Source of the DNA: a virus
Strand: one strand, 5' to 3'
Length of the DNA: 45,782 bases
Virus genome (UHGV): UHGV-0242872
Positions 8,731 through 45,036 of the stretch are shown one piece after another. The notes below the pieces were generated by a model that worked only from the letters and a program-made list of their open reading frames with translations, searched no databases and had not been told where the DNA came from. How positions within the stretch are numbered: position 1 is the stretch's first letter; the number at the start of each line of letters is the position of its first letter. The position numbers were made by a program, and so were the translations under genes.

Positions 8731-8772
8731 AACATAACTCCTGATTTGAGATAACATCGTTGGTGTAAGTGA

Positions 8773-8801
8773 ATAGTACGCTATTATATTGGGGTGTGCA
8801 A
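8773..8801 (-). promoter_or_regulatory. sigma70-like promoter TTGCAC-N17-TACTAT for moron cassette
   Basis: -35 at 8801-8796, -10 at 8778-8773 on minus strand; AATAG-N4-CTATT palindrome 8772-8785 overlaps the -10. Confidence 0.55.
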
Positions 8802-19058: not shown

Positions 19059-19193
19059 CTCTTCTGATAACTTCTCCAGTACAAACGCCAGTTGCGCATT
19101 AGCGGCGTCTCTTTGCTGGCGTAGTCGTAGAACCTCCTCTTCGAGTTCCTTGATACGTTTTTGCAATGCCGGAATCGGGGCTATGATGTTCAT
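19056..19193 (-). CDS. small coiled-coil protein (45 aa)
   Basis: ATG 19193 overlaps helicase stop (ATGA); translation MNIIAPIPALQKRIKELEEEVLRLRQQ... Confidence 0.35.
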   Translation of the reverse strand: MNIIAPIPALQKRIKELEEEVLRLRQQRDAANAQLAFVLEKLSEE

Positions 19194-20614
19194 TTCTTAC
19201 CTCGTCTCTTCATGTAGTTAAGCAACTCTTCCTGTACCGATTTCTTCTCGTCGGTACGCGCGGCAACAACCTCGTCCAGTGTGTCTTTAGCAACGATGTG
19301 ATACAGGAACACCGGGCGTTCGTGGCCTGCCTGCTTCTGGCGTACTGGGCCTATACGCTCGACAACCTGCAAATAGTGCTCAAGATTCCAGCCTTGTGAG
19401 ATGAATGCCAGATGATGCCCGCCGTCCTGTAAATTCAAACCATGCCCGGCTGACGCGGGATGCACGCACAAAATCTCGATTTCGCCACGGTTCCACGCTT
19501 CCATCTGCTTATTACCCTTAGCACCTTTCGCGAATGCCTGCGCCTGCGGGAAACGTTTCAGGATACGCTCCAGTTCGTGCTTGAACTGATAGGCGACTAG
19601 CAACGGCGCACCCTGTAACTCCTCCACAATCGACTCAAGCGCGTCCAGTTTCGTGTCGTGCACTTTCTCCCAGTCTTTGGTTGCTTCGCCGTCAGGCCCG
19701 GACACATATACGGCACCGGATGCAATCTGCAAACACTTCGACGTCTTCGCCGCCGCGTTAGCCGCTTCAACTTCTCCGCTTTCCAGTTCCGCGAATAACT
19801 TCTCTTCCATGTCGATGTAAGCCTGACGCGCTTTCTTCGGCAGGTCGATTTCAACCGGTACGATAATCGGCGCTTCACATCCAAACCACTCAGCGGCGTC
19901 AATCGTGAGACTAATGTCCTTCATCTTCTGGTGAATTTCATTATCTGCACCTGGTCGTGCGTGATACTCACGCGCCATCGCCGATTTTCCTTTCTGTACC
20001 GAATTAAACCAGCGGTCGGTGAATGCTGTATACGACGAACCTAGGCGCTCGCCAGCGTCGATAAACCAGTTCTGGCCCCACAAATCCTTGAGGCCGTTTG
20101 GTGACGGTGTACCAGTCAGGTTAATAAAACGCTTAACCCTTCCGAAAGCCACTTTACTAAGCGCCTTTGCACGCTTGCTACCACCTGAACGGCTGCGGAA
20201 TGATTTAAGCTTCGTGCTTTCATCTGCAACGATAACCGTAAAAGGCCAGTCGTCTTTGCCGTAGTAGTCAATCAGCCACTCGATAACCTCATAGTTCGTG
20301 CAAACCACGTTAGCATCTGACTCCAGCGCCGCGATGCGGCGCTTCTCTGAACCAGTCGCATCTACAACACGCAGACATGGGAATTGCCATTTCTCTTGCT
20401 CTGCAGGCCACGTACCAGACGCAACCCGCAGCGGGGCGAGGATTAACACGCGGTCGTCATCATTAAGTTGGCCGTTTCGGAACAGTCGGTTTAATGCCCA
20501 CAGTACGCTGCCAGTCTTCCCAGCGCCCATGCTTGCCCATATGTTGCAGCGATGGTGCCGCAGCATGAACGAAGTCATGAGCTTTTGGTACTCACGCCTT
20601 TGAAACTTACTCAT
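19190..20614 (-). CDS. SNF2/DEAD-like helicase
   Basis: Walker A GAGKTG, DESTK box, LTGTP motif. Confidence 0.8.
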   Translation of the reverse strand: MSKFQRREYQKLMTSFMLRHHRCNIWASMGAGKTGSVLWALNRLFRNGQLNDDDRVLILAPLRVASGTWPAEQEKWQFPCLRVVDATGSEKRRIAALESDANVVCTNYEVIEWLIDYYGKDDWPFTVIVADESTKLKSFRSRSGGSKRAKALSKVAFGRVKRFINLTGTPSPNGLKDLWGQNWFIDAGERLGSSYTAFTDRWFNSVQKGKSAMAREYHARPGADNEIHQKMKDISLTIDAAEWFGCEAPIIVPVEIDLPKKARQAYIDMEEKLFAELESGEVEAANAAAKTSKCLQIASGAVYVSGPDGEATKDWEKVHDTKLDALESIVEELQGAPLLVAYQFKHELERILKRFPQAQAFAKGAKGNKQMEAWNRGEIEILCVHPASAGHGLNLQDGGHHLAFISQGWNLEHYLQVVERIGPVRQKQAGHERPVFLYHIVAKDTLDEVVAARTDEKKSVQEELLNYMKRRGKK

Positions 20615-21536
20615 TTACCGCCCCCATGAATGCCTTTATAAATTCAGCAGCTACTTGCGGGACGATGGCATTGCCGTAACCGCGCAATCGTCCCACTCTG
20701 GCGGGTATCCCATCAGCCAGCGGGAATGTGCCGGGTTCAACTGGCCTGAATTTTCCATCCCTGCATCCGAGCCAGTCAGCACCTGACCAGAAGCCGTAAT
20801 GCGAATAGGTTGTGTTATTTTCAGCCCCTGCTCCGTCGAGTAGTCCAGCCTGTCGAAAGTCCGGTCCTTTCCGTCCTTGCGAATCACTGTCTCTCCGCTC
20901 CCTCTGTAATCGTTCGCGGTCGGCGTCGCCCATGCCGTCATCGCGGCGGCCCACCCCAGTTTGTTCGGTTTCGTCCTGCCGTCTGTGCTGCGCATGTTCA
21001 CGTCGTTTGTTATCAGTGATACCGCTGGCGTGGGCCAATCTATGCGCGCCGAAGAAAAGTCGGTCGCGTTTGTGCGGTGCGCCGACGCTACAAGCTGGGA
21101 GTACGGCAAACCCGACGGCGTAGTTTTCTCCTTCCAGGTGAGTTTGTAAATCGCACATCCACGATTTTGCAATTGCTGGCGCAACCTGCTCCCCAAAGAG
21201 GACTGGAGGGTGGCACTCGCTGATGAGGTCGAGGAACACAGGTGCGAGGTGTCTCGGGTCGAACTGTCCGAGTTGCTTTCCCGCTGCGCTAAACGGTTGG
21301 CAAGGCGGGCTTCCCGTCCAGAGAGGCGCATCTTCCGGAACTCCCGCAAGTCTGAGCGCGAGGGGCCAGCCGCCGATACCAGCGAAAAAATGACACTGGG
21401 TGAATCCGTCGAGGTCTTCTGGCTTAACTTCAGTAATGCTTCTTTCATCTACAACTCCAAAAGGTATGTGACCCTGTTTTATTAATTCACGCAGCCACGC
21501 GGCTGCGCCTTTATCCCATTCGTTGTAATAGTTCAT
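20607..21536 (-). CDS. DNA (cytosine-5)-methyltransferase, orphan
   Basis: motif I FAGIGG, motif IV SPPCQPFS, ENV-like GEQV, RDR, motif X GNAIV; no restriction partner seen. Confidence 0.8.
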   Translation of the reverse strand: MNYYNEWDKGAAAWLRELIKQGHIPFGVVDERSITEVKPEDLDGFTQCHFFAGIGGWPLALRLAGVPEDAPLWTGSPPCQPFSAAGKQLGQFDPRHLAPVFLDLISECHPPVLFGEQVAPAIAKSWMCDLQTHLEGENYAVGFAVLPACSVGAPHKRDRLFFGAHRLAHASGITDNKRREHAQHRRQDETEQTGVGRRDDGMGDADRERLQRERRDSDSQGRKGPDFRQAGLLDGAGAENNTTYSHYGFWSGADWLGCRDGKFRPVEPGTFPLADGIPARVGRLRGYGNAIVPQVAAEFIKAFMGAVNE

Positions 21537-21724
21537 TTTGCCACCAGTACCAGTTCCTTCCTCCCGAACGCCGTAACGTTTCCAGCTACGTCTTCGATAA
21601 CCAGTTTACCGTTAGACTCGACGAACACCGTATCAACGGCAACAGGACGACGTGTCTTAACGTTGAAAATCATGTCACCCGGTACAATGTCACGTGCAGG
21701 TTTGCGGTCGTATTCGTGTTTCAT
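21533..21724 (-). CDS. hypothetical protein (63 aa)
   Basis: first gene after internal promoter; ATGA coupling to methyltransferase. Confidence 0.45.
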   Translation of the reverse strand: MKHEYDRKPARDIVPGDMIFNVKTRRPVAVDTVFVESNGKLVIEDVAGNVTAFGRKELVLVAK

Positions 21725-21754
21725 TTCTCAATTCCTTATATTGTTGGTGTAGGA

Positions 21755-22042
21755 CTAACTATAATAGTTCGCTATTAGGTCGTCAACCTGTTTAAACGAA
21801 CCGACGACAAAAACATTTGCACCTCTTTTACGCATCCGCTCGTGCTCGCGTAACTGGTGGGGGTCGGGCTTCGTGTTTTCGTCTTTCTTAACCTCAACGA
21901 ACCAGACGATGCCGCCGGGGAGAATTACCAGCAGGTCAGGAGCGCCGGAACGTCCTTCGTAGGAAAGTTTACGAACGAGGCCACCAAGGGCCTCGAATCG
22001 CTCTTTTGCGTATTTCTGTATTTTGCCCTCAGGCGTACTCAT
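21755..22042 (-). CDS. VRR-NUC domain nuclease
   Basis: PD-(D/E)XK-type motif PDLLVILPGG...FVEVKK. Confidence 0.7.
   Translation of the reverse strand: MSTPEGKIQKYAKERFEALGGLVRKLSYEGRSGAPDLLVILPGGIVWFVEVKKDENTKPDPHQLREHERMRKRGANVFVVGSFKQVDDLIANYYS
21758..21786 (-). promoter_or_regulatory. sigma70-like promoter TTGACG-N17-TATAGT
   Basis: minus strand; AATAG-N4-CTATT palindrome 21763-21776 in spacer. Confidence 0.55.
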
Positions 22043-22127
22043 CTACACACCCCTCACGTTTCGTATGCTCAACCCCACAGCGCGGACAGATTCGACAGTC
22101 TTCTTCGTAGAACCAGTAAATTTTCAT
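22029..22127 (-). CDS. small zinc-ribbon protein (32 aa)
   Basis: CRICPRCG...EGC; ATGA coupled to upstream gene; below track cutoff. Confidence 0.3.
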   Translation of the reverse strand: MKIYWFYEEDCRICPRCGVEHTKREGCVDEYA

Positions 22128-22255
22128 TCCAGCACCCACAGATAAATTGCTACTAACATACCCAATACAGCGACCATCATGCCATATTGACCCTCGTGAC
22201 AGTAGACACCGGCGGCGAATCCCGCCAGTACCGCAATAATCAGTTTACTTGGCAT
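22124..22255 (-). CDS. small membrane protein (43 aa)
   Basis: ATG 22255 two nt after HNH stop with ACGGGGG SD; hydrophobic helix; trimmed from track ORF 22124-22507. Confidence 0.35.
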   Translation of the reverse strand: MPSKLIIAVLAGFAAGVYCHEGQYGMMVAVLGMLVAIYLWVLE

Positions 22256-22256
22256 T

Positions 22257-22754
22257 CTAGCCCCCGTGATTCTCATGAAAGCCGTAGCGAACAATTGCAG
22301 ATTTCCGCGCACAAGCCGCGTCAAATATATTGTCATGGTGGCCCAAGAATATAAGTCTACCGTCAACGAATATCCCTGCTTTCCATTTAGCCGCCCGTGC
22401 GTTCCAGTGCACACCTGTGAGCCCCGACTTGTTATCTTTTCTCCGAGATGCGTTTCGGTTGTTATCAGTACGCGATACTTTCCGAAGGTTGCATGCACGA
22501 TTATCATCCAGGATGTGATTTATATGGTCTACTTCATCATCAGGACCTAAACGGTCATTGTTATACATCTCCCACGCGATACGATTAGCCCTGTAACTAA
22601 CCCCTCTGACGACGATACAGATGTAGCCCCTCTTACTCGGGCTACCGGCTTCGTCTCCGGCGTTTATACTGTGTCTCGGGGAATACTTCCATCGTATCTT
22701 CCCCGTGTCAGATTCGTAGTAGAAATGGTCATGCCAATTAATTAAATCTCTCAT
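22257..22754 (-). CDS. HNH homing endonuclease with AP2-like DNA-binding domain
   Basis: HNH motif DHINHILDDNRACNLRKVSRTDNNRN, C-terminal AP2-like GVHWNARAAKWKAGIFVDGRLIFLG; GAGGGGG SD. Confidence 0.8.
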   Translation of the reverse strand: MRDLINWHDHFYYESDTGKIRWKYSPRHSINAGDEAGSPSKRGYICIVVRGVSYRANRIAWEMYNNDRLGPDDEVDHINHILDDNRACNLRKVSRTDNNRNASRRKDNKSGLTGVHWNARAAKWKAGIFVDGRLIFLGHHDNIFDAACARKSAIVRYGFHENHGG

Positions 22755-22768
22755 AAATCACCCCCTCA

Positions 22769-24970
22769 TCATTTAGCGTATCTGTACATTTCGCTACCTT
22801 CCGCTACAAGAGGGAACCCCTCGGCCCATTCCGGCAACGCACACATTAATTTTTCCAGTTCGGCCACCGTGTACTCGGGGGTATCTGGAGTTTCGCATAC
22901 TAGTTCATCGTGTACCGAAAGCACGATAGGATATCCGCCACGCTCAACATTAATCATCGCATATGCTAGTAAATCACGGCACAGCGCCTGAACAATGTTT
23001 TCGCAGGCTTTGCCGCCGTGTGTGTACAAGGTAGTCCATTGGCGGGTTAACTGGTTTTCGCCTTGATACTTGATTCGCACATTCGTGTTCACCCGTCCAT
23101 CTTCATCTGTTTCCTTTGTCACACTAACGCCGATTCCTGGATACGAGAGGATACGACCTGACGGCAACTCCATACACAACCACCAACCCGGAACCTTCCT
23201 ACCGGATGAATCAAATTCTACAGTACGCCATATGCGGATAGCCCTTTCCCCATTCCTGCGCAAGTGTGCCCCCGCCCAAAATTCACGACCAGGATTACGC
23301 ACAGCTGCTAAAATTCCGTCTTTAAGGTCGCGCCAGAACGCTACTGTTTCCGGGTGTGACTCGCGCCACATACGCTTGATAGCATCACATGTGCGCCACA
23401 CTTTCTTATCAAGAATATATGATGGCCTATCGTCCTTTTCACCTGTATGCGGGGGGCGCTTGGCTTCCTGGATGCGCGCCCATTCATATCCTCTCGCGGT
23501 GGCTGACCAGATGTGGTCGGGGAATGTACCGTCCATTGTTTTTGCCATCTCAATAAGGTCAAGACCTAAGTTTTTAGCAAACGTAACGAACGCTCCGACG
23601 CCGCCTTCATATCCGAGTCCCAGTTCGCATGCTTTGCCTATCTGTCTGATTTCCTTGAAGTTTTTCTTAATATCGTCTTGGTCCATACCGAACATCTTAC
23701 CTGCGGTTACGCAGTAAATATCCAGCCCGGCGCGGAACGTATCGAGCGCGGTTTCTTCACCCGCCAGCCACGCAAGCCCACGACCCTCAACGTTAGAATA
23801 ATCGGCGACGACAAACTTATGTCCTGCTTCCGGAATGATGCAGCTGCGAACCGTCGATGCCGTTAGCTTGGCTACATCGAAACGGCGGTGAGCACGACCC
23901 TTAAGTAACGCTGAAATGCCTTTATCCAGTTCATCATCGTGATAGTACCCGCGCGCCAGGTTCTGCGGCTGGAAGCCTTTACCCGCCCATCGCAGAGTAC
24001 GTTTTGCCCCGCCATACTGCAAACAACCACGGCGACGGTCGTCCGATGAGCGGCCTAACAGCAGCGGGTTATATTTCGTGGACGCTGTTGACGCGGCCCC
24101 GAGGCGCATTTCGATAATCATCCGGGCGTCGTCCGGTAAATCATCATCTGCCAACAGGTCGTTAAGCGTCGACTTCTGTGCGTTGTGTATGCGGTGTGCG
24201 GGGGCCAGTTCACGTAGAATAGGCAGAAAGTCCTTACCGGTAAGCGAGCCGCCGTATTTACGTTGAGCTTCTTCCTGTAACTGTGCCTTGTGCTTCTCTA
24301 CGGCTTCAATCGCGGCTTCCGCCAGTGCGACGTCAACCTTAAATCCGCGGTCGTTGATTAACTGGTCAAGTTCCAGTACACGGTCTTCGAACTCGGAGTT
24401 ACCCCAACGCGGCAGCTTATGGAAGACTTCACGCATCGCAGTGATGTCGCTCACGGCGTACCTGATGAACATCGCCCACTCGTCAGGGTGAGTTTCTGCG
24501 GTGTAGCGGCGGATTTTGTAGTTCTTCGGCGTCGGTTTAGAGAAACGCTTAATCAGAGCCTTGCCGCGTTTATCTTTCGCGTTGTCTGCAGACACGCCCA
24601 GCACTTCGCACAGCGCATCAAGAGAACCCGGCAGCGCGTGACGGAACGCCCAAATCATAGTATCAATGGTGTTACTTACCGGAATATCAAAGCCCCAGCA
24701 GTGTTTCATGATTAGGCGATCGAAAAGTCCACCGTTGTGCCACACAATCTTGATGCGGCTGTTGGGCTTAACAAGGCGGCGCAGTGCGCGGTGTAAATCC
24801 CCCGGCATGTCGCTGCCGTCGGTGCAATCCCATACCCGCACAGGTTCGTCGTCAAAAGCATATGTACAGATAAGCACTTCGGTTGACGGGTGTTCGGCGT
24901 AAGCGTAAGAACCGACTTTCTTCAAATCGGCTTCTGAGAATGTTTCAAAGTCTAAGAACAGGTAACTCAT
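22769..24970 (-). CDS. DNA polymerase I (family A) with 3'-5' exonuclease domain
   Basis: 733 aa; Exo I FLDFETFS, motif B RQIGKACELGLGYEGG, motif C LSVHDELV. Confidence 0.9.
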   Translation of the reverse strand: MSYLFLDFETFSEADLKKVGSYAYAEHPSTEVLICTYAFDDEPVRVWDCTDGSDMPGDLHRALRRLVKPNSRIKIVWHNGGLFDRLIMKHCWGFDIPVSNTIDTMIWAFRHALPGSLDALCEVLGVSADNAKDKRGKALIKRFSKPTPKNYKIRRYTAETHPDEWAMFIRYAVSDITAMREVFHKLPRWGNSEFEDRVLELDQLINDRGFKVDVALAEAAIEAVEKHKAQLQEEAQRKYGGSLTGKDFLPILRELAPAHRIHNAQKSTLNDLLADDDLPDDARMIIEMRLGAASTASTKYNPLLLGRSSDDRRRGCLQYGGAKRTLRWAGKGFQPQNLARGYYHDDELDKGISALLKGRAHRRFDVAKLTASTVRSCIIPEAGHKFVVADYSNVEGRGLAWLAGEETALDTFRAGLDIYCVTAGKMFGMDQDDIKKNFKEIRQIGKACELGLGYEGGVGAFVTFAKNLGLDLIEMAKTMDGTFPDHIWSATARGYEWARIQEAKRPPHTGEKDDRPSYILDKKVWRTCDAIKRMWRESHPETVAFWRDLKDGILAAVRNPGREFWAGAHLRRNGERAIRIWRTVEFDSSGRKVPGWWLCMELPSGRILSYPGIGVSVTKETDEDGRVNTNVRIKYQGENQLTRQWTTLYTHGGKACENIVQALCRDLLAYAMINVERGGYPIVLSVHDELVCETPDTPEYTVAELEKLMCALPEWAEGFPLVAEGSEMYRYAK

Positions 24971-24982
24971 TATTTTTGACCC

Positions 24983-25010
24983 CTAGTAAAAAGGCCCAAT
25001 GAAGGGCCTT
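24983..25010 (-). terminator. intrinsic terminator (minus strand)
   Basis: AAGGCCC-TTCATT-GGGCCTT followed by TTTAC on minus strand. Confidence 0.55.
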
Positions 25011-25029
25011 AGTTAAATTGATTCAGATA

Positions 25030-25656
25030 TTAGCGGCGGCGACGTTCGCGGCGCGGTGCTTCATCTTCTTCGTCGTCTTCCAGGTCATTGACGCTCGCAG
25101 CGACTTTAGAACCGCCGAACGCTTTGCCTTCGCCAACGTATTTAATCGCCAGCAGGTTAACGCCGAGGACTTTGTATTTCTGGCTGAACCAGATTTCAAC
25201 GCTTACGTTAGCTAAGCATCCGCTGTAAACCTGTTCACCTTCAATCTGTTCGCCGTCTACGTTGAAGTCCTGCTCTACCTGAGTCTCACCTTTTTTAGAG
25301 GTTACAATCAGCGGCTGTTTCTGTGCCTTCGCTTTGAAGTAGAAGCCTTCCGGGAAGTCTTCAAACGGATTGTCGCGCTCGGCAATGTCTTTAATCGCGC
25401 ATTTATCCATGTGCTTACCTTCACCGTAGTTGGACTTCATCCATTTCTCGGCAGCGGCTGCGCCTAACGCTTCTTCAACTACAGCGTAAACGGTGTCATA
25501 GAGCGCATCGATTTGCGCATGGTCAGACGGCAGGATAATCGTTGCGCTGTACTGACCTTTAGTGATTGATCCATCGTCGTTTTCACGGTCTTTTTCGCGT
25601 TCGAATACGTTAACCCAGGCAGTGTTTACTTTACGCAGATTTAATTTCAGTCCCAT
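25030..25656 (-). CDS. putative ssDNA-binding protein (T7 gp2.5-like / DUF2815-like)
   Basis: 208 aa with acidic tail DLEDDEEDE then basic RRERRRR; adjacent to exonuclease and polymerase. Confidence 0.5.
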   Translation of the reverse strand: MGLKLNLRKVNTAWVNVFEREKDRENDDGSITKGQYSATIILPSDHAQIDALYDTVYAVVEEALGAAAAEKWMKSNYGEGKHMDKCAIKDIAERDNPFEDFPEGFYFKAKAQKQPLIVTSKKGETQVEQDFNVDGEQIEGEQVYSGCLANVSVEIWFSQKYKVLGVNLLAIKYVGEGKAFGGSKVAASVNDLEDDEEDEAPRRERRRR

Positions 25657-25714
25657 TTGATTTCTCGCTTTTCAGTTTCAGTTTACTCCGGGATCTGCCC
25701 GGCCAGTGATTAGA

Positions 25715-25743
25715 ACTATAATAGCTAACTATTCATGTGTCAA
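25715..25743 (-). promoter_or_regulatory. sigma70-like promoter TTGACA-N17-TATAGT
   Basis: minus strand; palindrome 25720-25733 in spacer. Confidence 0.6.
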
Positions 25744-25932
25744 ATAAAATTTTGCAATAGGGATTATGTTCTCGAAATTAAGCATATTGGCCGGTTCGAA
25801 CTCATCCTCTACAGGGTAGTATCGCATCATGGTACCGTTCAAGAACGTGAACGATTCCGAGTGTAGATACCCATCCCAGTGCCATACCATCAAAAAATCT
25901 TTATCAGTCGGCATTTCATTTACTTGAATCAT
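25729..25932 (-). CDS. hypothetical protein (67 aa)
   Basis: ATG 25932 with AGGAGG SD overlapping exonuclease stop (ATGA). Confidence 0.4.
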   Translation of the reverse strand: MIQVNEMPTDKDFLMVWHWDGYLHSESFTFLNGTMMRYYPVEDEFEPANMLNFENIIPIAKFYLTHE

Positions 25933-27218
25933 TCTAAATCCTCCTCTGTAACTTGATTCCACTCAGGACGTTTGTCATCCGCCGTTGCGACGCATGGCGC
26001 ACCGGGCTTACGGGTAATGAAGTCTTTCAGTTCTTCTTCCGGTACAATTTTAACCGCTTCGGTCGGTGTCATAAGAACTACCTTTTGCAGCATAGTACCG
26101 TACTTCTCGAATACTGCATCGGTATCTTTCCACGCACGATTACCCGGGCGTCCTTCAACCAGTTTATACCCCGGCACTTTCTTACCGGAATGTAACGCAG
26201 CAGCCATAGCTTTCTCAACCTTGTCGATGTGCTGGCGCAACAACGGCAACTTCTCATACTCAGCTACGAGTTGCTCTGGCGTAAGCTCAAGTGCAAAGTC
26301 GTCCTCCAGTTCTTCCGCCAGCCCCGCGTTAACGGTTTTTGTACGCGCTGCGCATTGTTCAGAGAACCGACACCACTGACAACCATCTACCGACGGCTTG
26401 AAGTCCGACGCTTTCAGGTTCTTTTTACCCCGGAAATAGGCATCAAGAGCCAACAGCGCCCGTTTCTGTGCAAACTTAGCGAACAGTTCCAGACCTTCAA
26501 CCGAGATGTCCCACTCCGATGCACCGCCAGCGTACGGCTGGAAGATGACCAGTCGAACGGTTGTTATGCTATAACGTCTCTTGAGTCGGCGATAAACGCC
26601 GAGAGCATAAAGCATAAGCTGCTTGTTTTCTTTCGCTTCGACACGATGCCGCCCGGTTTTCAGGTCGCAGATGATAAGCATGTGTTCGTCGGTGTTAGCC
26701 AGTTCCTGTATGGCAACAAGGTCAGCAGTTCCGAACGTCTCCACAGTTTTAAAAACCCCGGCGTTGCCATCCCCCGGCTCCCCAGCAACACGAAACATAT
26801 AGCCAGGATGCAATACCTCAGTAAGATTGACCCGCATTTCCAGCTTAGCGTAAGCCGCTACGTCGATAATCGCTTTGCAGTAGTCGGTGTACTTGCGCAC
26901 CTGCTCAATCATGTCCGCCGTAATCAGTACAGCACCTTTCATCGGGCTGATTAGCGCCTTAATCTGGCCTTTACCCTCGTCCAGCACGTAAGCGCCAACT
27001 TCACGCTCTAACGGCAGTGCAGTTCCGCGGATATAGGCGTTGAGATGGACCTCCGCTATGGTGTGGCACGCTGTACCTGTAACGGCGGCTTTACCTGACG
27101 TGTTGGGAATATCTTTCTCACAGGCCAGCGATGCGGCGCAGCTTAGCCACTTTTTAGCCCCTGACGGCGACAGCAGGGCGTGCACATCGTTATTGCCGCC
27201 GCGTTCTTTTAAAATCAT
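25929..27218 (-). CDS. Cas4/RecB-like PD-(D/E)XK exonuclease (DUF2800-like)
   Basis: ATG 27218 with GGGAGG SD; LLSPSGAKKWLSC, DLK motif, C-terminal CQWCRFSEQC cysteine cluster. Confidence 0.7.
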   Translation of the reverse strand: MILKERGGNNDVHALLSPSGAKKWLSCAASLACEKDIPNTSGKAAVTGTACHTIAEVHLNAYIRGTALPLEREVGAYVLDEGKGQIKALISPMKGAVLITADMIEQVRKYTDYCKAIIDVAAYAKLEMRVNLTEVLHPGYMFRVAGEPGDGNAGVFKTVETFGTADLVAIQELANTDEHMLIICDLKTGRHRVEAKENKQLMLYALGVYRRLKRRYSITTVRLVIFQPYAGGASEWDISVEGLELFAKFAQKRALLALDAYFRGKKNLKASDFKPSVDGCQWCRFSEQCAARTKTVNAGLAEELEDDFALELTPEQLVAEYEKLPLLRQHIDKVEKAMAAALHSGKKVPGYKLVEGRPGNRAWKDTDAVFEKYGTMLQKVVLMTPTEAVKIVPEEELKDFITRKPGAPCVATADDKRPEWNQVTEEDLE

Positions 27219-27487
27219 ACCCTGACCTCCCACTGGTCAATTAAATGTCGTGTCTTGTGGTCACAATGCATCGCCCAGCTATACATCGACTCGAAGACAT
27301 AAAAGTCACTTTTAACGAATGTCGTGCGCTTAATCTGCGACAGGTGACGGCCTATATCTTTCGGCTTCGGTACTTTGCCGAGGTAGGCCATCTCTTCCAT
27401 CTGGTGCGCGCCGGACGGCGCACGCAACAGCCACAACGCCTCTGTGTTATCCCGTCGGTCAATACCTCGGTAGAGTTGGTAAATCAT
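27215..27487 (-). CDS. hypothetical protein (90 aa)
   Basis: ATGA coupling to exonuclease gene. Confidence 0.45.
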   Translation of the reverse strand: MIYQLYRGIDRRDNTEALWLLRAPSGAHQMEEMAYLGKVPKPKDIGRHLSQIKRTTFVKSDFYVFESMYSWAMHCDHKTRHLIDQWEVRV

Positions 27488-27530
27488 ATTACGACCCTCT
27501 GTTAAAGCGGCCCGGAGGCCGCCAGATAAA

Positions 27531-28034
27531 TTATTCTTCTTCGAAATACTTGTTCTTAATCGCCGTCAGGCGTTTCAGGTATTCAGCCAGGTCTTCGTCT
27601 TTAATCGCGGCAATCTTCATTTTCTTACCGGTGAACTCCTCCAGCAGTTCATCGGAATCGTCGCACGCAGCATCGCTAGGACCTTCGTTAATTGCATCGT
27701 CGATAGCCTGAATCTGGTCACGAAGAGACTGGTAATCGACCTCTTCTTTCTCTTCTTCTGGTTCTGGAGTCGGCTCCTCTACTTTAGCTTTACGCGGCTT
27801 GCGTTTCGGCTTCTCTTCTTCTTCTGCTGGTTTAGCGTCAACGATGTCTTCACCTTCAACAGGGATTTCTTTTGTTGCTTCTTTTTCGCACTCAGCTACC
27901 GCTTCTTTGGTATACACTACCGTCTCTACTTCTAACGGCGCTGCAACTTGTGCTGACTGTTTCGCACTGTTCGCAGCAATCAGTTCATGTGCAACTACGA
28001 AACGTTCCAGTAATTTTAAGAATTGTTCTAACAT
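27531..28034 (-). CDS. highly acidic disordered protein
   Basis: 167 aa, Glu/Asp-rich with a KPKRKPRKAK patch; AGGAG SD. Confidence 0.5.
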   Translation of the reverse strand: MLEQFLKLLERFVVAHELIAANSAKQSAQVAAPLEVETVVYTKEAVAECEKEATKEIPVEGEDIVDAKPAEEEEKPKRKPRKAKVEEPTPEPEEEKEEVDYQSLRDQIQAIDDAINEGPSDAACDDSDELLEEFTGKKMKIAAIKDEDLAEYLKRLTAIKNKYFEEE

Positions 28035-28056
28035 TTGTTTCTCCTGTTTATTTAGG

Positions 28057-28284
28057 TTACTCGCCGTCGCCTTCTGTAAGGCTATCGTCTATTAATTCAA
28101 ATTTACCGTTTGAGTGTTGGATAGCTTCTTGCCCGCAATGGTCGCAAACCACCAGTTTATCGAATCCGTCAAACTCGTCCCCGACTACGCAAGAAAGTAC
28201 AAATTTATGTTTTGTACATACTTCTTGCGGTGCGCCGAAAATTGCGTGAAAACATTTAGTTATAGCTCCAGTGATTATGTTCAT
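28057..28284 (-). CDS. Cys-rich small protein (possible zinc-binding), first leftward early gene
   Basis: 75 aa, five Cys including CDHC; directly downstream of consensus promoter. Confidence 0.5.
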   Translation of the reverse strand: MNIITGAITKCFHAIFGAPQEVCTKHKFVLSCVVGDEFDGFDKLVVCDHCGQEAIQHSNGKFELIDDSLTEGDGE

Positions 28285-28312
28285 ATCTTCACCTCTCGTT
28301 TGGTATGGGTTA

Positions 28313-28341
28313 ACTATAATAGCGAACTATTCACATGTCAA
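28313..28341 (-). promoter_or_regulatory. consensus sigma70 promoter TTGACA-N17-TATAGT (leftward early)
   Basis: -35 at 28341-28336, -10 at 28318-28313; palindrome AATAG-cgaa-CTATT 28318-28331 in spacer. Confidence 0.7.
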
Positions 28342-28361
28342 TGGGCTTTTCTAAAATAATT

Positions 28362-28375
28362 AATATGGTACTATT
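28362..28375 (+). promoter_or_regulatory. imperfect operator-like palindrome overlapping a TACTAT -10 upstream of the Cro-like gene
   Basis: AATAT-ggta-CTATT with TACTAT at 28369-28374; candidate -35 is weak. Confidence 0.35.
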
Positions 28376-28405
28376 CACATATCAACTAACTAAGGAGTAG
28401 CTGAC

Positions 28406-28621
28406 ATGCAACCATCTGAACTAGGCATTCGTGTAGAACAACGCCGTAAAGAACTCGGCATCTCCCAGCGCCGTCTGGCTGTCCTGGCCGGTGTCTCCCA
28501 GGGCGCGATTAACCAGCTTGCACTTGGGGTAACTCAGGATGTCCGCCCGGCGACGCTGTTTAAACTGGCGGAAGTGCTTGAAGTAGACGCCAAGTGGTTG
28601 GCGTTAGGTGAAGGGGCTTAA
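28406..28621 (+). CDS. Cro/XRE-family HTH transcriptional regulator
   Basis: 71 aa with HTH ISQRRLAVLAGVSQGAINQL; AAGGAG SD; sits in a divergent promoter region. Confidence 0.8.
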   Translation: MQPSELGIRVEQRRKELGISQRRLAVLAGVSQGAINQLALGVTQDVRPATLFKLAEVLEVDAKWLALGEGA

Positions 28622-28639
28622 GCCCCTTTTCTTTTTATT
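28611..28639 (+). terminator. intrinsic terminator after Cro-like gene
   Basis: AAGGGGC-TTAA-GCCCCTT hairpin followed by TTCTTTTTATT. Confidence 0.75.
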
Positions 28640-28832
28640 GCACCTTTATCGGGTATCTTTTGCGAAACTTACCTAACCCGCAGTACACGCTGTAAGCCTC
28701 TGTGTAACTGAACACAACATGATACCCGCGCCCATAAGGAACTACGTTAAGAACTTCTACTACTTCGCCTCTGTGGTTGGTGTATTTATTACCTTTCAGT
28801 TCGTCGCTTACTTCTTTAAATTTACCGCTCAT
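28635..28832 (-). CDS. hypothetical protein (65 aa)
   Basis: ATGA coupling to primase-helicase. Confidence 0.45.
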   Translation of the reverse strand: MSGKFKEVSDELKGNKYTNHRGEVVEVLNVVPYGRGYHVVFSYTEAYSVYCGLGKFRKRYPIKVQ

Positions 28833-31081
28833 TCCAAATCCTCCTCTGTCACTGTCAACATTTCATTCGGTTCGTATATTGTCTTTGGAATCTTGTTATC
28901 AGTTATTCTGGTGTTCAGCCTGTAACGACCTGGGATTATCTGATTGTTTTCGTCAGTACCCGGAACAAGATACCCAGCCTCAACCATTTTCTTAATCTTC
29001 CCGCGTTCTATGGCTTCTTTGGAGTTAAACGCCTTTGCGTTGGGGTCTGACTGTGCGAGCTTATTCGCCGCGGCGACTGTGATGCCCTCGTTGCCGTTGT
29101 AGGTCCCCTCCGCCAGTTCAAACGCCGCGAGTATCGTGGCCTCGGAACTGTTGACGGCGTTCTCTATGGTTTTACGTACATTTTGTTTACCTTCGTTAGT
29201 TAACCCTTCTTCCCTCTCTTTCTCCTCGTCGGTCTTGAATGGCTCGAAGCCCCACGGCATCAATACAAGCGCCTTGTGCGGCTCAGGCAGGTCGAGGTTT
29301 ACTATTGTGCCGTATTCCTCTGTGCTACCGAGGAACTCAACCGCGCGGTACTCTTTCGGCGGCGGTGCTTCACGGAACTGTACAGACTCCAGTACCATGC
29401 CAACCGTCTTCTGTTGCGGACCGTGCTTAAATTTAGAGTGGTATACGTTTATCTGACGGTCGGTAGCGCGTTCGATTGTCAGTTCCACGTCGACACCCGC
29501 ATACAATGCTCCACTGCCGCGGGCTTTCTTTCCGCCCTTCGGAGTATGGTGAACGACACCGACAGCGGCTTTAGTTGCATCGCGCACTTCTTTCAGGATG
29601 GCGATAACTTTACCCATACCGATTGCCGTTGATGAACTGTTCTCGTCGAACTTATCAATCGTCAGGGCCAGCGTCTGGTTAAGGGTGTCGAAGGCAACCA
29701 TGCCAATAGGTTCATCCCCTGCGGTTTCGCGCATCCTGCGGATTAGAGCTGGAATTTTTTTATCACCATGCGTAGCGAGTATTTCGCCCATATCGATGAC
29801 ATGTACATAATCTTTACCTTCCTCGCCATATTTAGCCGCGAGTGCATCAATACGTGTTCGTGTAGCTGCACCACCCTCGCCGTCAATATAGAAATGGTGG
29901 CAACGTTGGGTGTCAGCCCCCGCAAACCGGTACACGGCGGCGCTCAGGTACATCATCCCCAGCGTATAGAATGATTTGTACGTGCCGGATTCCCCGACAA
30001 TATCCCAGATACAATCCGACGGCATGTACCCCTCAACGACGAAATCAGCCTTTACCGGTTCTGGTAACTCGTCCTCTTCTTCAAGGTCTTCCAGCGTGCA
30101 AGTTACAGGCTCCTCGTTCTCTGTGCGGTGCAGTTCTTCAATCTCTTCATCCGGTAAATCAGGCAGAGCCGCACGAATGCTGTTAATACTGATAGGTTGC
30201 TTGTCTACGTTAAGCTCGTCCGGAAGGCCGCACATACGCAGGGCCAAATGCTGTCGGCGGTTAAGCTCGGTGCAAGCGCCGTTGTTTGTATGCTGGCACA
30301 CAAAGCGCACTTCTTTACCATCAAGCATGATGCTTGTGGAGCCTTTGCCTGTATGCAGATGTTCGTTAGGGCATGGGACTTCGTACCCGCGCCCGGAAGA
30401 TAAAGCGTCAAGGCCAAGCTCGGCTTCGCAGAAATGCGCTATATCAGCGTTAAGCCCATACTCATCGGCGGCAAGTGTCTTAACTTCACGTTTACTCAAC
30501 TCCATCTCTTCGGCTTTCTTGATGTACCGCTCGGCACGGATAACACGCCCTTCTGTAACCGTTATCTTTGACTCTCTATGTGGCAGATAGATAAGGCGGT
30601 TGCCGTCTTCCGTGCAGTGGTCACGCAAGGCTTCATCTATTTCTAACTCTGCGCAAATAGCCCGTTGGACCATCCACGCGTCGTTAGAGTTAAACGGCGT
30701 GCGAGCCGGAACCAGAACGCGGAAGGCGTAATCACCGTTTTTACACACATGCTGATGCGATGCCGTTGTATGCAGAATATTGAAGAACGGTGCGTTCTTG
30801 AATTTGCGGGTAAGGTCGCGGTACTGAGTACGGTTGAGATGGTCAAAATCGAACTTAACCACACTGTCTTCCAGGATAGCGTTTTTACGGCGACCCCCAA
30901 CAGGCGCAATAGCTTTCTGCTTAATCTTGGCAGCGTCGTACTCTTCCTTAGACCACGACGGATCCACGGATAAACGCTTCGATGTATCGCAGACATATTC
31001 TACGAACTGCTCGAGCGGCATCTCACGCGCTACAGGGTTTTTATCGAATGTGTTGCGCAGCGTTGCAAAAACAATATTCAT
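28829..31081 (-). CDS. primase-helicase (zinc-ribbon plus RecA/DnaB-like ATPase)
   Basis: 750 aa; Cys/His cluster CPNEHLHTG...CQHTNNGAC; Walker A GESGTYKS; Walker B-like VAFDT. Confidence 0.8.
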   Translation of the reverse strand: MNIVFATLRNTFDKNPVAREMPLEQFVEYVCDTSKRLSVDPSWSKEEYDAAKIKQKAIAPVGGRRKNAILEDSVVKFDFDHLNRTQYRDLTRKFKNAPFFNILHTTASHQHVCKNGDYAFRVLVPARTPFNSNDAWMVQRAICAELEIDEALRDHCTEDGNRLIYLPHRESKITVTEGRVIRAERYIKKAEEMELSKREVKTLAADEYGLNADIAHFCEAELGLDALSSGRGYEVPCPNEHLHTGKGSTSIMLDGKEVRFVCQHTNNGACTELNRRQHLALRMCGLPDELNVDKQPISINSIRAALPDLPDEEIEELHRTENEEPVTCTLEDLEEEDELPEPVKADFVVEGYMPSDCIWDIVGESGTYKSFYTLGMMYLSAAVYRFAGADTQRCHHFYIDGEGGAATRTRIDALAAKYGEEGKDYVHVIDMGEILATHGDKKIPALIRRMRETAGDEPIGMVAFDTLNQTLALTIDKFDENSSSTAIGMGKVIAILKEVRDATKAAVGVVHHTPKGGKKARGSGALYAGVDVELTIERATDRQINVYHSKFKHGPQQKTVGMVLESVQFREAPPPKEYRAVEFLGSTEEYGTIVNLDLPEPHKALVLMPWGFEPFKTDEEKEREEGLTNEGKQNVRKTIENAVNSSEATILAAFELAEGTYNGNEGITVAAANKLAQSDPNAKAFNSKEAIERGKIKKMVEAGYLVPGTDENNQIIPGRYRLNTRITDNKIPKTIYEPNEMLTVTEEDLE

Positions 31082-31206
31082 TTCTTTTTCTCCGCACGTT
31101 CTAAGGCTTCCTGCATACGGCGCATTGCGCGGTTCATCTTTACCGGTGCGAAGAAGTCAGCGCCGTGTTTCTGGCGGCGTAGCTGTGGAACTATTAACTT
31201 TGTCAT
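31078..31206 (-). CDS. small basic protein (42 aa)
   Basis: ATG 31206 with AAGGA SD; stop overlaps helicase ATG (ATGA). Confidence 0.3.
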   Translation of the reverse strand: MTKLIVPQLRRQKHGADFFAPVKMNRAMRRMQEALERAEKKK

Positions 31207-31274
31207 TGTATAATCCTTATGCTTACTTTGATGATTTGTACTTTAGCCCCGACGTTCTGGCGTTGGGGTTTCTT

Positions 31275-31487
31275 TTACTTAACGCCCGCAATCCACGCAC
31301 GCTCCGAAGCGTAGAAACGACACTTACTTAAAGCCTCGATTGGCATCTTAATAATGCGTGTCGGTTCCAACAAATGATTAGGCTTACATATTTCCGCATA
31401 GAATCCGCTGTCAGTAATTTCCGACGCAAACTTAAACCAGTATTTAACTTTACAGTTTTCAAAGTAACAACCCATACGCCCAATCAT
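31275..31487 (-). CDS. hypothetical protein (70 aa)
   Basis: ATGA coupling to upstream HTH gene. Confidence 0.45.
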   Translation of the reverse strand: MIGRMGCYFENCKVKYWFKFASEITDSGFYAEICKPNHLLEPTRIIKMPIEALSKCRFYASERAWIAGVK

Positions 31488-31666
31488 TTCACGTTCTCCT
31501 TAATCCATGCTTCAACTTTATTACGGTCAAATGTTCCTGGTAAACGGCGACCCATAACCTTAATACAGCAATCAGGGAATTTACCGCTGCGCAACCAGTT
31601 ATTAATTGTTTGACGTGTCACCCCGATACGTTCAGCCACTTCATTCTGTGTCATGTAATGCTGCAT
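31484..31666 (-). CDS. AlpA/excisionase-like HTH DNA-binding protein
   Basis: ATG 31666 with AGGAG SD (track ORF extends to 31738); HTH TQNEVAERIGVTRQTINNWL. Confidence 0.6.
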   Translation of the reverse strand: MQHYMTQNEVAERIGVTRQTINNWLRSGKFPDCCIKVMGRRLPGTFDRNKVEAWIKENVK

Positions 31667-31726: not shown

Positions 31727-31773
31727 CCAAAACACCACACAAAGTTACTAATATACAAAAGATGCTAATGGTA

Positions 31774-31802
31774 TTGACTTTTACTAAGAAATGTGCTAAG
31801 CT
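31774..31802 (+). promoter_or_regulatory. strong extended -10 promoter TTGACT-N17-TGcTAAGCT driving structured RNA copy 1
   Basis: -35 at 31774-31779, TG at 31794-31795, -10 at 31797-31802. Confidence 0.6.
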
Positions 31803-31808
31803 CCACCT

Positions 31809-31915
31809 GAGCTTGTGAAGTATGAACAAGCGACCGCGGTGCGGCAGGAAACGGAGCGGTGCGTCAGCACTGAGTGTAGTGTCGCTGCCTGCATTCGGAA
31901 GGGCCATAATCTATT
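31809..31915 (+). ncRNA. structured RNA element, copy 1 (function unknown; candidate antitermination or regulatory RNA)
   Basis: about 107 nt starting at predicted TSS; paralogous to 45138-45245; hairpin GCUUGU-N9-ACAAGC; compensatory base-pair changes between copies; no ORF. Confidence 0.45.
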
Positions 31916-32003
31916 GTAAATCCCGTCTAAATAACCCAAGTCACTAATAATTAAAAGTTTCTATAGTTGCCGTAAGCAAGGTAGAGAGTACTTCACTCCG
32001 CTG

Positions 32004-32023
32004 GGGTGGGCTAAAGCCCACCC
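32004..32023 (+). terminator. stable hairpin downstream of RNA copy 1 (possible attenuator)
   Basis: GGGTGGGC-TAAA-GCCCACCC, no canonical U-tract. Confidence 0.3.
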
Positions 32024-32082
32024 GCTGCGTTGCGTACTCTTTAAAGAAACAAAAGAATCACAACGGCAACGTAACTATTCTC

Positions 32083-32111
32083 TTGCACACCCCAACATAA
32101 TAGGATACTAT
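32083..32111 (+). promoter_or_regulatory. sigma70-like promoter TTGCAC-N17-TACTAT (rightward early)
   Basis: palindrome AATAG-gata-CTATT 32099-32112 overlaps the -10. Confidence 0.6.
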
Positions 32112-32145
32112 TCACTTATCGAAACGAGACAGAGGAGTGAGGGTT

Positions 32146-33206: not shown

Positions 33207-33235
33207 TTGCACGCTAAGATAGAATAGGCTACTAT
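33207..33235 (+). promoter_or_regulatory. sigma70-like promoter TTGCAC-N17-TACTAT
   Basis: palindrome AATAG-gcta-CTATT 33223-33236 overlaps the -10. Confidence 0.6.
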
Positions 33236-33245
33236 TCATTTACAC

Positions 33246-33269: not shown

Positions 33270-33415
33270 TTACTTTGATGATTATGGAATTCGAAAATAG
33301 CGCAGCAACTTATCGTGAGATGTCTATGGTGCAGGCGTACCACCTGGCATCAAACGGCAACTTCTACAAGGCTCAAATTATCAATGAGTTCGGGGTAATT
33401 GACTATGAATTTTAG
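33266..33415 (+). CDS. hypothetical early protein (49 aa)
   Basis: GAGGAGAGA SD; below track cutoff. Confidence 0.35.
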   Translation: MVTLMIMEFENSAATYREMSMVQAYHLASNGNFYKAQIINEFGVIDYEF

Positions 33416-33677
33416 CAGCTACACCGTGACCGTTGATTTTGAGGGGCTGGAGTTGGCCCTCCCTAACAACTACCGGTATATAACTCGCGACCGTTTCGGG
33501 TTTATTCAGGGGTGGAGGAACAAACCGACAGACACTGAGTTCGGGATGTCAGGCGGAGAAGAGTTACCGATCACGTTCGGGCATCAGAGCAGTAATGCAG
33601 AACTTAAAACTGTGATTCGTAAGTATCGCCGCCGTGGTAATACGGGACTTATAGCTGTAACAGGCGCTGTTGAATAA
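33405..33677 (+). CDS. hypothetical early protein (90 aa)
   Basis: ATG 33405 inside track ORF that opens on TTG 33399. Confidence 0.45.
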   Translation: MNFSSYTVTVDFEGLELALPNNYRYITRDRFGFIQGWRNKPTDTEFGMSGGEELPITFGHQSSNAELKTVIRKYRRRGNTGLIAVTGAVE

Positions 33678-36363: not shown

Positions 36364-36437
36364 ACCAATTGACACCTAAGACTAATCCGACGATACTTAA
36401 ATCACCTCCTGTTCCATCCCTCTGCTCTCCAGTTTTA

Positions 36438-36469: not shown

Positions 36470-36491
36470 ATCTATTTTCGGTAATGACTAG

Positions 36492-36520
36492 TTGACTATT
36501 ACCCTCGACCCTATTATATT
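36492..36520 (+). promoter_or_regulatory. sigma70 promoter TTGACT-N17-TATATT
   Basis: consensus-like hexamers upstream of gene at 36554. Confidence 0.6.
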
Positions 36521-38672: not shown

Positions 38673-38697
38673 AAGCCCTCTACGGAGGGCTTTTCTG
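38673..38697 (+). terminator. intrinsic terminator
   Basis: AAGCCCTC-TACG-GAGGGCTT hairpin followed by TTCTGT. Confidence 0.65.
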
Positions 38698-38731
38698 TAC
38701 ATCCCGCCCAATCCCCTTATATAATCTATTT

Positions 38732-42249: not shown

Positions 42250-42296
42250 TTTTCATCTCCTGTTTAAGTTAACTGAATAGTACCCTATTATATTGG
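42246..42296 (+). repeat. 51-nt direct repeat, copy 1 (promoter, operator and SD of a minus-strand small gene)
   Basis: 50/51 identical to 44977-45027. Confidence 0.8.
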
Positions 42297-42305
42297 TGTC
42301 TGCAA
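42277..42305 (-). promoter_or_regulatory. sigma70-like promoter TTGCAG-N17-TACTAT
   Basis: minus strand; palindrome AATAG-tacc-CTATT 42276-42289 overlaps the -10; part of 51-nt repeat. Confidence 0.5.
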
Positions 42306-42349
42306 ATATTATTTTTATGCGTTACACTGGCGATACTACAGGAGGGCAC

Positions 42350-44980: not shown

Positions 44981-45027
44981 TTTTCACCTCCTGTTTAAGT
45001 TAACTGAATAGTACCCTATTATATTGG
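44977..45027 (+). repeat. 51-nt direct repeat, copy 2
   Basis: 50/51 identical to 42246-42296; the pair brackets the head-morphogenesis/intein/Ig-like segment. Confidence 0.8.
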
Positions 45028-45036
45028 GGTGTGCAA
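45008..45036 (-). promoter_or_regulatory. sigma70-like promoter TTGCAC-N17-TACTAT
   Basis: minus strand; palindrome AATAG-tacc-CTATT 45007-45020 overlaps the -10; part of 51-nt repeat. Confidence 0.55.

Follow-up and report, generated by a model that had tools for sequence, protein, structure and literature searches.

The 434 Cro protein (PDB 2CRO and 3CRO) and the 434 repressor, through its N-terminal domain, bind 14-bp operators of the form ACAAG-N4-CTTGT, in which two 5-bp arms flank a 4-bp centre, and a glutamine (Gln) of the recognition helix reads the A at operator position 1. Another arrangement is that of P1 C1, of L5 gp71 with its "stoperators" and of phiC31 c, where one regulator has many copies of a short site throughout the genome, mostly overlapping early and replication promoters. 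Here we describe a candidate system with likenesses to both in the virus genome UHGV-0242872, a stretch of 45,782 bp analysed over its whole length (the window), where the region concerned is about 90–97% identical at the nucleotide level to many Escherichia phages of the genus Kagunavirus (subfamily Guernseyvirinae). A gene at 28406–28621 encodes a 71-aa regulator that shares its size and its predicted five-helix, lambda-repressor-like fold with 434 Cro, and a 14-bp palindrome, AATAG-N4-CTATT, with the same arms, centre and first-position A as the 434 operators, recurs in about ten promoters. Unlike the 434 system, the locus lacks a divergent cI gene, a tripartite right operator (OR) and an integrase; the gene forms a monocistronic unit closed by a terminator of its own, and the candidate operators are single sites with the arm AATAG rather than ACAAG. 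P1 C1, L5 gp71 and phiC31 c are immunity repressors of temperate phages with other folds and sizes and often asymmetric sites, whereas the regulator here is Cro-sized and its phage has no recognisable means of lysogeny. We somewhat favour the reading that the protein would be a 434-Cro-type homodimeric repressor, acting on AATAG-N4-CTATT operators in these promoters without a CI partner or an integrase, which would make it a brake on transcription throughout the genome and not one half of a lysogeny switch.

The regulator and its candidate operators

The regulator and its control region comprise the following features (promoter classes A and B are defined below).

28406..28621, plus strand: regulator gene, 71 aa, XRE/HTH_3 family, phage 434 Cro-like, ATG start (from the open reading frame (ORF), Pfam and the fold)
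28392..28397, plus strand: Shine-Dalgarno sequence AAGGAG, 8 nt 5' of the ATG, conserved in 21 Kagunavirus sequences
28313..28341, minus strand: leftward promoter P_L1, TTGACA-17-TATAGT, class B, 11 of 12 consensus matches, driving the 75-aa, 167-aa, 90-aa and exonuclease genes
28318..28331, either strand: candidate operator AATAGCGAACTATT in the P_L1 spacer, -25 to -12 (from the palindrome scan and conservation)
28330..28357, plus strand: alternative rightward promoter TTCACA-16-TAAAAT, 10 of 12, its -35 abutting that of P_L1
28362..28375, either strand: candidate operator AATATGGTACTATT, one mismatch, overlapping the -10 TACTAT of the regulator's own promoter
28366..28374, plus strand: the regulator's own promoter, extended -10 TGgTACTAT (TG 28366-28367, TACTAT 28369-28374) with a weak -35
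28610..28640, plus strand: intrinsic terminator of the regulator gene, hairpin 28610-28629 and U-run, -19.1 kcal/mol, z -2.65

The protein passes the Pfam cutoff for HTH_3 (PF01381, E 2.3e-12, 47.2 bits against a cutoff of 23), as well as those for HTH_19 and HTH_31, and matches PHROG families of transcriptional regulators and repressors. By sequence (phmmer), its top match in the PDB is 434 Cro (E 2e-6, residues 6-68 against 4-64), followed by the DNA-binding domain of the 434 repressor and by P22 C2. The AlphaFold2 model (predicted local distance difference test score 78) has five helices (residues 5-17, 21-28, 32-39, 48-57 and 62-66), arranged as in the lambda-repressor-like fold of the 434 Cro type, in which the second and third make up the helix-turn-helix, and its best PDB match in Foldseek is 2CRO (template modelling scores 0.73/0.79, 41% identity). 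The recognition helix is predicted to be VSQGAINQL (residues 30-38), with a Gln at the second recognition-helix position conserved between the regulator and 434 Cro. Matches and model together identify a Cro-type single-domain helix-turn-helix (HTH) protein whose closest solved relative is 434 Cro. An earlier note on this DNA had described a 71-aa XRE-family gene standing alone on the plus strand between minus-strand operons, with its own promoter and operator-like palindrome, its own terminator, and a leftward promoter facing it. Each of these descriptions was borne out: the gene is the only plus-strand one in 19056-31666, two promoter candidates (28330-28357 and 28366-28374) and the palindrome at 28362-28375 precede it, a hairpin with a U-run closes it, and P_L1 faces it.

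An unbiased scan of all palindromes with arms of 4 to 6 nt, separated by up to 8 bp (in the relatives by up to 10 bp), found AATAG-N4-CTATT to be the most enriched palindrome in the genome, with 8 perfect copies against 0.03 expected (Poisson p ~2e-17). With at most one mismatch there are 12 copies against 1.39 expected, a number reached in none of 100 dinucleotide shuffles; for palindromes at large, counts with one mismatch allowed are too noisy, being dominated by GC-rich coding palindromes. One short site is thus repeated at many promoters far above chance. Although only 7.4% of the genome is non-coding, all eight perfect copies are non-coding or at a gene edge, each inside a promoter with an exact 17-bp spacer (for this count the VRR-NUC ORF, whose last ~20 nt are overlapped by the copy at 21763, was left out of the gene list). 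The promoters fall into two classes. In class A (TTGCAC-17-TACTAT), the palindrome lies across the -10, from -19 to -6; the sites are 8772 (-), 32099 (+), 33223 (+), 42276 (-), 45007 (-) and, with one mismatch, that of the regulator's own promoter (28362). In class B (TTGACA-17-TATAGT), it fills the spacer from -25 to -12, at 28318 (-), 25720 (-) and 21763 (-). Contacts of RNA polymerase do not explain conserved arms within a spacer, and from both positions a bound protein would repress. The candidate control is not a switch of the local promoter pair, the same palindrome lying in about ten promoters throughout the genome. Outside the control region, the candidates are as follows.

25715..25743, minus strand: class B TTGACA-17-TATAGT, operator AATAGCTAACTATT at 25720-25733, driving the single-stranded DNA-binding protein and DNA polymerase operon
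21758..21786, minus strand: class B TTGACG-17-TATAGT, operator AATAGTTCGCTATT at 21763-21776, driving the methylase and helicase genes
32083..32122, both strands: bidirectional promoter around operator AATAGGATACTATT at 32099-32112
32083..32122, plus strand: its rightward arm, class A TTGCAC-17-TACTAT, towards the small plus-strand genes
32083..32122, minus strand: its leftward arm, TCGATA-17-TATGTT, towards the HTH_17 gene and primase block
33207..33236, plus strand: class A TTGCAC-17-TACTAT, operator AATAGGCTACTATT at 33223-33236
8772..8801, minus strand: class A TTGCAC-17-TACTAT, operator at 8772-8785, driving the minus-strand block within the tail genes
42276..42305, minus strand: class A TTGCAG-17-TACTAT, operator at 42276-42289, driving a 57-aa minus-strand gene
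45007..45036, minus strand: class A TTGCAC-17-TACTAT, operator at 45007-45020, driving a 67-aa minus-strand gene
36487..36520, plus strand: weaker candidate ACTAGTTGACTATT, one mismatch, overlapping the -35 of TTGACT-17-TATATT
38696..38725, plus strand: promoter-like TGTACA-18-TATAAT with no palindrome, just 5' of the small terminase gene, a candidate for a promoter escaping the regulator

Five of the seven intergenic promoter-like sites scoring at least 10/12 overlap the palindrome, the exceptions being 36369-36397 and 38696-38725. Promoter-like matches in the region around the regulator are not above chance (8 found against 6.4 expected), and the argument for these sites comes from conservation and palindrome statistics. 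Among 21 distinct Kagunavirus control regions, both hexamers of P_L1 and both arms of both local sites are invariant, and the changes fall in the central 4 bp (CGAA, CTAA, TGAA and CAAA; GGTA, GATA and GCTA) and between palindrome and -35. Invariant arms around a variable centre are what one would expect where a dimeric protein binds. The two local sites, 44 bp apart and directly upstream of the regulator gene, are the only closely spaced pair in the genome, and the extended -10 at 28366-28374 corresponds to promoters of relatives. Two other candidates for an operator were discarded: the quasi-palindrome TTCACA/TGTCAA at 28330-28341 is merely two -35 hexamers back to back, and the direct repeat ACTATTCACATRTCAA (at 28326 and 28370) consists of a palindrome arm and promoter elements (the class B -35 on one strand, the class A start region on the other). 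The class A promoters resemble each other beyond the palindrome, their -35 and spacer (TTGCAC-ACCCCAAyAT) being nearly identical at 8786-8801, 32083-32098 and 45021-45036 and diverged at 42290-42305, and all of them have a conserved start region, TCAnTTA, which suggests promoter duplication or a second bound factor. At the other end of the regulator gene, Jersey has a hairpin at the equivalent place with a different sequence. On the minus strand the hairpin (28596-28645 examined) lacks a U-run, so transcription of the primase operon may continue in antisense across the regulator gene as far as the P_L1 region, and such convergent transcription could be an extra layer of control.

The gene and the palindrome in related phages

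The gene itself is not new: it is an already annotated Cro-type XRE regulator and a core gene of the Guernseyvirinae. A tblastn search found it in 546 phage records. Identity is 95% or higher in some 115 records of Kagunavirus, near 50% in Jerseyvirus and near 40% in members of the St162/FSL SP-031 group, and phiEap-2, AH01, VLCpiS11a, TS33 and Tsm2 carry more distant or additional relatives. Its position is constant across all these groups and phages. Within Kagunavirus the recognition helix and the stretch GVSQGAINQLALGVTQ.VR are unchanged even in variants that are 77% identical overall. GenBank records label the orthologues "CRO", "DicA", "repressor" or "transcriptional regulator"; those at the same position, 100% to 49% identical, include Golestan gp48 ("CRO"), Schulenburg "transcriptional regulator Cro", Jersey gp50, SGP-C ORF49 ("repressor") and Bas76_0050, the last being 100% identical. 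A word-indexed protein search returned just relatives of at least ~77% identity and fragments, and no distant gene contexts. In the literature on the Guernseyvirinae orthologues we found annotations only, with no published operator, regulon or functional test, and in that on Jerseyvirus and Guernseyvirinae no description of an operator, palindrome or promoter. The apparent lack of the gene in SHAK7858, the closest relative, was rejected, as tblastn finds it uncalled at 97% identity; in that record (OR594183.1), the regulator ORF at 4424-4636 of the locus compared is unannotated and a 96-nt minus-strand ORF is called over it. The SHAK7858 record also gives the taxonomy as Autographiviridae/Kayfunavirus although the genome is Kagunavirus-like.

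The distribution of the gene bears on the idea that a temperate ancestor left it behind as a decaying remnant, or that it is an antitoxin of a toxin-antitoxin pair or a controller (C) protein of a restriction-modification system, with no role in phage transcription. Foldseek does return the antitoxins HipB and HigA and the C proteins C.BclI and C.AhdI with similar scores, these are small autoregulated dimers of the same fold class binding palindromes over their own promoters, and some records carry the label DicA. The gene is, however, fixed in position in more than 500 phage records of several genera, with an invariant recognition helix within Kagunavirus, and it has no obligate adjacent partner. 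Since the flanking 75-aa and 65-aa genes are both absent from Bas76, where the regulator is 100% identical, neither can be an obligate partner toxin. Unlike the restriction-modification and toxin-antitoxin loci, this one has no adjacent endonuclease, methylase or toxin gene, the methylase being 7 kb away. We therefore consider a remnant, an antitoxin or a C protein very improbable.

The palindrome was found at corresponding places in relatives. In Bas76 the same palindrome tops the scan with 7 copies; in Jersey it is enriched (4 perfect copies, 7 with at most one mismatch) and its sites fall on promoters that the record annotates, among them the orthologue of 21758-21786; SGP-C has 6 perfect AATAG-N4-CTATT sites. 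The sister lineage represented by Pantoea phage AH01 differs in sequence, its top non-terminator palindrome being AATAC-N4-GTATT, with 5 perfect copies against 0.05 expected and, with at most one mismatch, 10 against a mean of 1.0 in mononucleotide shuffles. These sites lie at orthologous promoters, including the leftward promoter (P_L) beside the XRE gene and the XRE promoter itself. The change amounts to G:C to C:G in both arms, and the recognition helix reads TQGGIGH in AH01 against SQGAINQ here; a contig from IMG/VR that encodes the same protein as AH01 shows the same sites. The phiEap-2 genome has mixed G and C arms, with 10 sites of at most one mismatch against 1.13 in mononucleotide shuffles, again at orthologous promoters.

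Which protein reads the palindrome is a separate question, as the genome encodes two HTH proteins recognisable by Pfam, the XRE regulator and the following second small regulator.

31484..31666, minus strand: 60-aa HTH_17 excisionase-family HTH protein (Pfam HTH_17, phrog_66)

On balance, and with moderate confidence, we assign the palindrome to the XRE protein. That this protein would bind the motif, and that binding would repress, we infer from the operator geometry, the position in promoters, the covariation across lineages and the lack of any other shared HTH protein. The alternative is that another factor (the early HTH_17 protein, an unrecognised small phage protein or a host protein) reads the palindromes, while the XRE protein acts only on itself or on the local divergent pair. 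The HTH_17 protein occurs in 443 records, all of Kagunavirus or Jerseyvirus, the genera with the strongest motif, and one operator sits within the bidirectional promoter heading its operon. On the other hand, phiEap-2 and AH01 have no HTH_17 homologue (tblastn E >0.5, for phiEap-2 E >2) and nevertheless show the enriched 5-4-5 motif at orthologous promoters. Of the 29 small proteins of phiEap-2, the XRE protein is the sole clear Pfam HTH, the other DNA-binding match being a weak one to NinH (E 6e-4). Moreover, HTH_17/Xis-type domains usually bind direct repeats as monomers, whereas a 14-bp inverted repeat of 5-4-5 layout suits a 434-type dimer. No ORF of the window of up to 200 aa matches the distribution of the motif (in Jersey and phiEap-2, not in St162 or VLCpiS11a). 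As for a host protein, the symmetric G-to-C switch in AH01 speaks against a conserved host factor, and to our knowledge none of the sites of CRP, ArgR, TrpR, LexA and Fur fits AATAG-N4-CTATT. A reader other than the XRE protein is thus unlikely in our estimation.

Several observations nevertheless weigh against the XRE protein as genome-wide repressor. Kagunavirus and Jerseyvirus share the AATAG arms, yet their XRE helices differ (SQGAINQ against SQSLITH) and the recognition helix of HTH_17 is nearly identical in the two genera, so that the comparison of helices alone favours HTH_17 as the binder there. The binder may also be a host protein or a small protein of the phage that has escaped recognition. 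The covariation rests on essentially two operator types, and the shuffle controls for phiEap-2 and AH01 are of the mononucleotide kind. St162 and VLCpiS11a keep the XRE gene, and neither shows an enriched palindrome. In the Kagunavirus K1B4 the XRE orthologue is a middle gene and HTH_17 peaks early (see below), and we found no binding or expression experiment on the regulator in the literature. An alternative regulatory palindrome was sought in St162 and VLCpiS11a, where just terminator hairpins and weak candidates came up, insufficient to extend the covariation. St162 has a weak asymmetric AATAC-N4-CTAAT at P_L, at the XRE promoter and at a few other sites. It also has three copies of TATTA-N6-TAATA (26790-26815, 33410-33435 and ~25350) in divergent intergenic regions among the structural genes, at the positions where Kagunavirus has class A sites, and the St162 motifs may represent the same control in diverged form.

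Gene order, timing and lifestyle

The regulator differs from a lambdoid Cro in its setting. There is no divergent cI-type repressor gene sharing its operator region, the divergent neighbour being a 75-aa protein with no assigned function followed by replication genes. Nor is the regulator the first gene of an early rightward operon leading into replication genes, as it is monocistronic and closed by a terminator, and the following module converges on it.

28635..31206, minus strand: primase-helicase module, a 750-aa AAA_25 protein and small ORFs, inverted relative to the sister lineages

In phiEap-2, St162, VLCpiS11a, AH01, TS33 and Tsm2, by contrast, the regulator heads a rightward arm with the primase-helicase next on the same strand, and the genomes consist of two divergent arms leaving one intergenic region at the regulator. 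The primase-helicases are full-length homologues, 29-44% identical. Kagunavirus and Jerseyvirus have this module inverted and headed by the HTH_17 gene, with a second divergent promoter region at ~32100, and it is because of this inversion that the regulator has become monocistronic with its own terminator. The flanking genes, at 28057-28284 (minus strand, 75 aa, Cys-rich, phrog_32657) and 28635-28832 (minus strand, 65 aa, phrog_36357), are missing from Bas76 and from all other genera compared, and the two slots beside the regulator look like places where accessory genes vary. About 350 nt (31739-32094) separate the bidirectional promoter from the HTH_17 gene; they have only marginal small ORFs and include a GC-rich hairpin at 32004-32025 (GGGGTGGGC-taaa-GCCCACCC) with a U-run on neither strand.

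The timing of expression can be read from RNA sequencing of K1B4, in which the HTH-domain gene _008 is among just four early-peaking genes, while _004 ("specific DNA binding") and _005 (AAA domain) belong to the middle class (PMC12645636). The supplementary gene table of that study gives _004 as a 216-nt plus-strand gene beside the primase and _008 as a 183-nt gene (PMC12645636); _004 is thus the orthologue of the regulator and _008 the HTH_17 gene, and the table rules out the assignment of _008 to the regulator by gene order. The regulator is therefore not early-peaking, and the earlier note's "early region" with a "temporal switch" finds no support. A middle timing fits a repressor that accumulates and acts in mid-infection, not an immediate-early Cro.

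The lack of lysogeny genes does not depend on where the window ends. Joined together, its last 800 nt and first 800 nt give an unbroken 1600-nt alignment to Bas76 (96.3% identity), and the window is a complete, circularly permuted Kagunavirus genome; there is therefore no DNA outside it for the integrase or CI-like gene just beyond its ends that the earlier note had named as counter-evidence. A Pfam scan of 79 ORFs genome-wide gave no integrase, recombinase, S24 peptidase, or partition or plasmid-maintenance family among the 25 families listed of 53 matched. No CI-size repressor was found in the whole genome, and no integrase, recombinase, S24 peptidase or partition family is annotated in the complete genomes of Bas76, Jersey, St162, VLCpiS11a, phiEap-2, AH01 and SGP-C. 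The marks of a temperate phage (an integrase, recombinase or partition system, or an excisionase paired with an integrase) were thus not found. Where the earlier note had reported no repressor, integrase or excisionase pair, the first two stand; it had overlooked the excisionase-family HTH_17 gene, which has no integrase partner and is probably a transcription factor.

The window segments that are missing from Bas76 contain no integrase; what they encode is an HNH endonuclease, a phosphatase of PNKP type, an insert resembling an intein and small unknown ORFs. One of them, 6331-7373 (minus strand), belongs to the minus-strand block that the class A promoter 8772-8801 drives, and encodes two proteins, one of 162 aa that resembles HAD/PNKP phosphatases (E 3e-20) and one of 184 aa without a Pfam match. 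The Mu-F-like head morphogenesis gene at 42293-44287 encodes 664 aa against ~358 aa in Bas76, with an extra in-frame segment of ~0.9 kb (about 43009-43902) whose match to Intein_splicing is weak and falls short of the Pfam cutoff (E 4e-4), and is likely to contain an intein or homing element within the head protein. Genes of ~1.86 kb occupy the same position in SGP-C and AH01.

Most papers on Kagunavirus and Jerseyvirus, the BASEL characterisation included, describe virulent phages and report no lysogeny genes. The Jerseyvirus SGP-C has been reported to form turbid bull's-eye plaques and to yield clones that are immune, phage-releasing, PCR-positive and possibly episomal "lysogens", a behaviour that its authors attribute to ORF49 and ORF46 (PMC8790156). 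ORF49 is the XRE orthologue (70/72 residues identical to Jersey gp50) and ORF46 the HTH_17 orthologue. The data (patch test, PCR and coverage) do not separate lysogeny from a carrier state or from resistant mutants with contaminating phage. The earlier note's conclusion of a "lytic-only" switch is hence upheld insofar as the protein is Cro-like and no lysogeny module is found, and is not to be taken as settled given the carriers reported for SGP-C.

This bears on a further explanation, in which the regulator would be an immunity-type global repressor that occupies the operators of nearly all non-structural promoters, silences the genome and sustains a carrier state, episomal or pseudolysogenic, that needs no integrase and brings immunity to superinfection, so that the phage would not be strictly lytic. 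Operators in about ten dispersed promoters are indeed the architecture of the temperate immunity repressors P1 C1, L5 gp71 and phiC31 c, and SGP-C, with its turbid plaques and immune clones, carries six perfect sites. Against it stand the absence of an integrase and of any partition or plasmid-maintenance family among the Pfam families listed, the many reports of virulence, the compatibility of the SGP-C data with other origins of the clones, and the size of the protein, which is that of a Cro without a cooperativity or cleavage domain; we hold this explanation to be quite unlikely. Equally doubtful to us is a bolder version, in which a single Cro-sized master repressor, its operators present in almost all promoters of non-structural genes, could shut down the whole genome at high occupancy and give carrier clones of the SGP-C type, a minimal lysogeny-like state without CI, integrase or partition, and in which specificity would have diverged in step (AATAG to AATAC) to give natural orthogonal repressor-operator pairs.

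Under the reading that we favour, a Cro-type homodimeric repressor of about ten promoters, each subunit would read one AATAG arm of the 14-bp operator, and occupancy across the -10 (class A) or in the spacer (class B) would keep the host RNA polymerase off the sigma70-type promoter. The targets would be the exonuclease, single-stranded DNA-binding protein/polymerase, methylase/helicase and HTH_17/primase operons, the small plus-strand genes, and three genes that lie on the minus strand within the structural region. Since the copy in the regulator's own promoter has one mismatch, this promoter would be expected to close among the last. With the protein building up in mid-infection, dose-dependent negative feedback or a shut-off of non-structural transcription would follow, and promoter-like sites with no operator, such as that upstream of the terminase genes, would stay open.

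To an already annotated gene, the present work adds a candidate regulon of about ten promoter-embedded operators, covarying across lineages, which is well supported. Phages of the Guernseyvirinae find wide use in therapy and biocontrol as "strictly lytic" agents, and hundreds of therapy-candidate genomes carry the gene as Cro, DicA or repressor, a label that papers either ignore on calling the phage devoid of lysogeny genes or cite as proof of lysogeny. A mapped regulon, together with a predicted switch of specificity in a sister lineage, would make the role of the gene decidable. If carrier states were sustained, this would bear on safety claims for Kagunavirus and Jerseyvirus preparations. 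If the proposed role is true, a global brake on early and middle transcription would be the key to the programme of a compact group of phages (42-46 kb) used in synthetic biology, and these phages would be a source of small orthogonal repressor-operator pairs.

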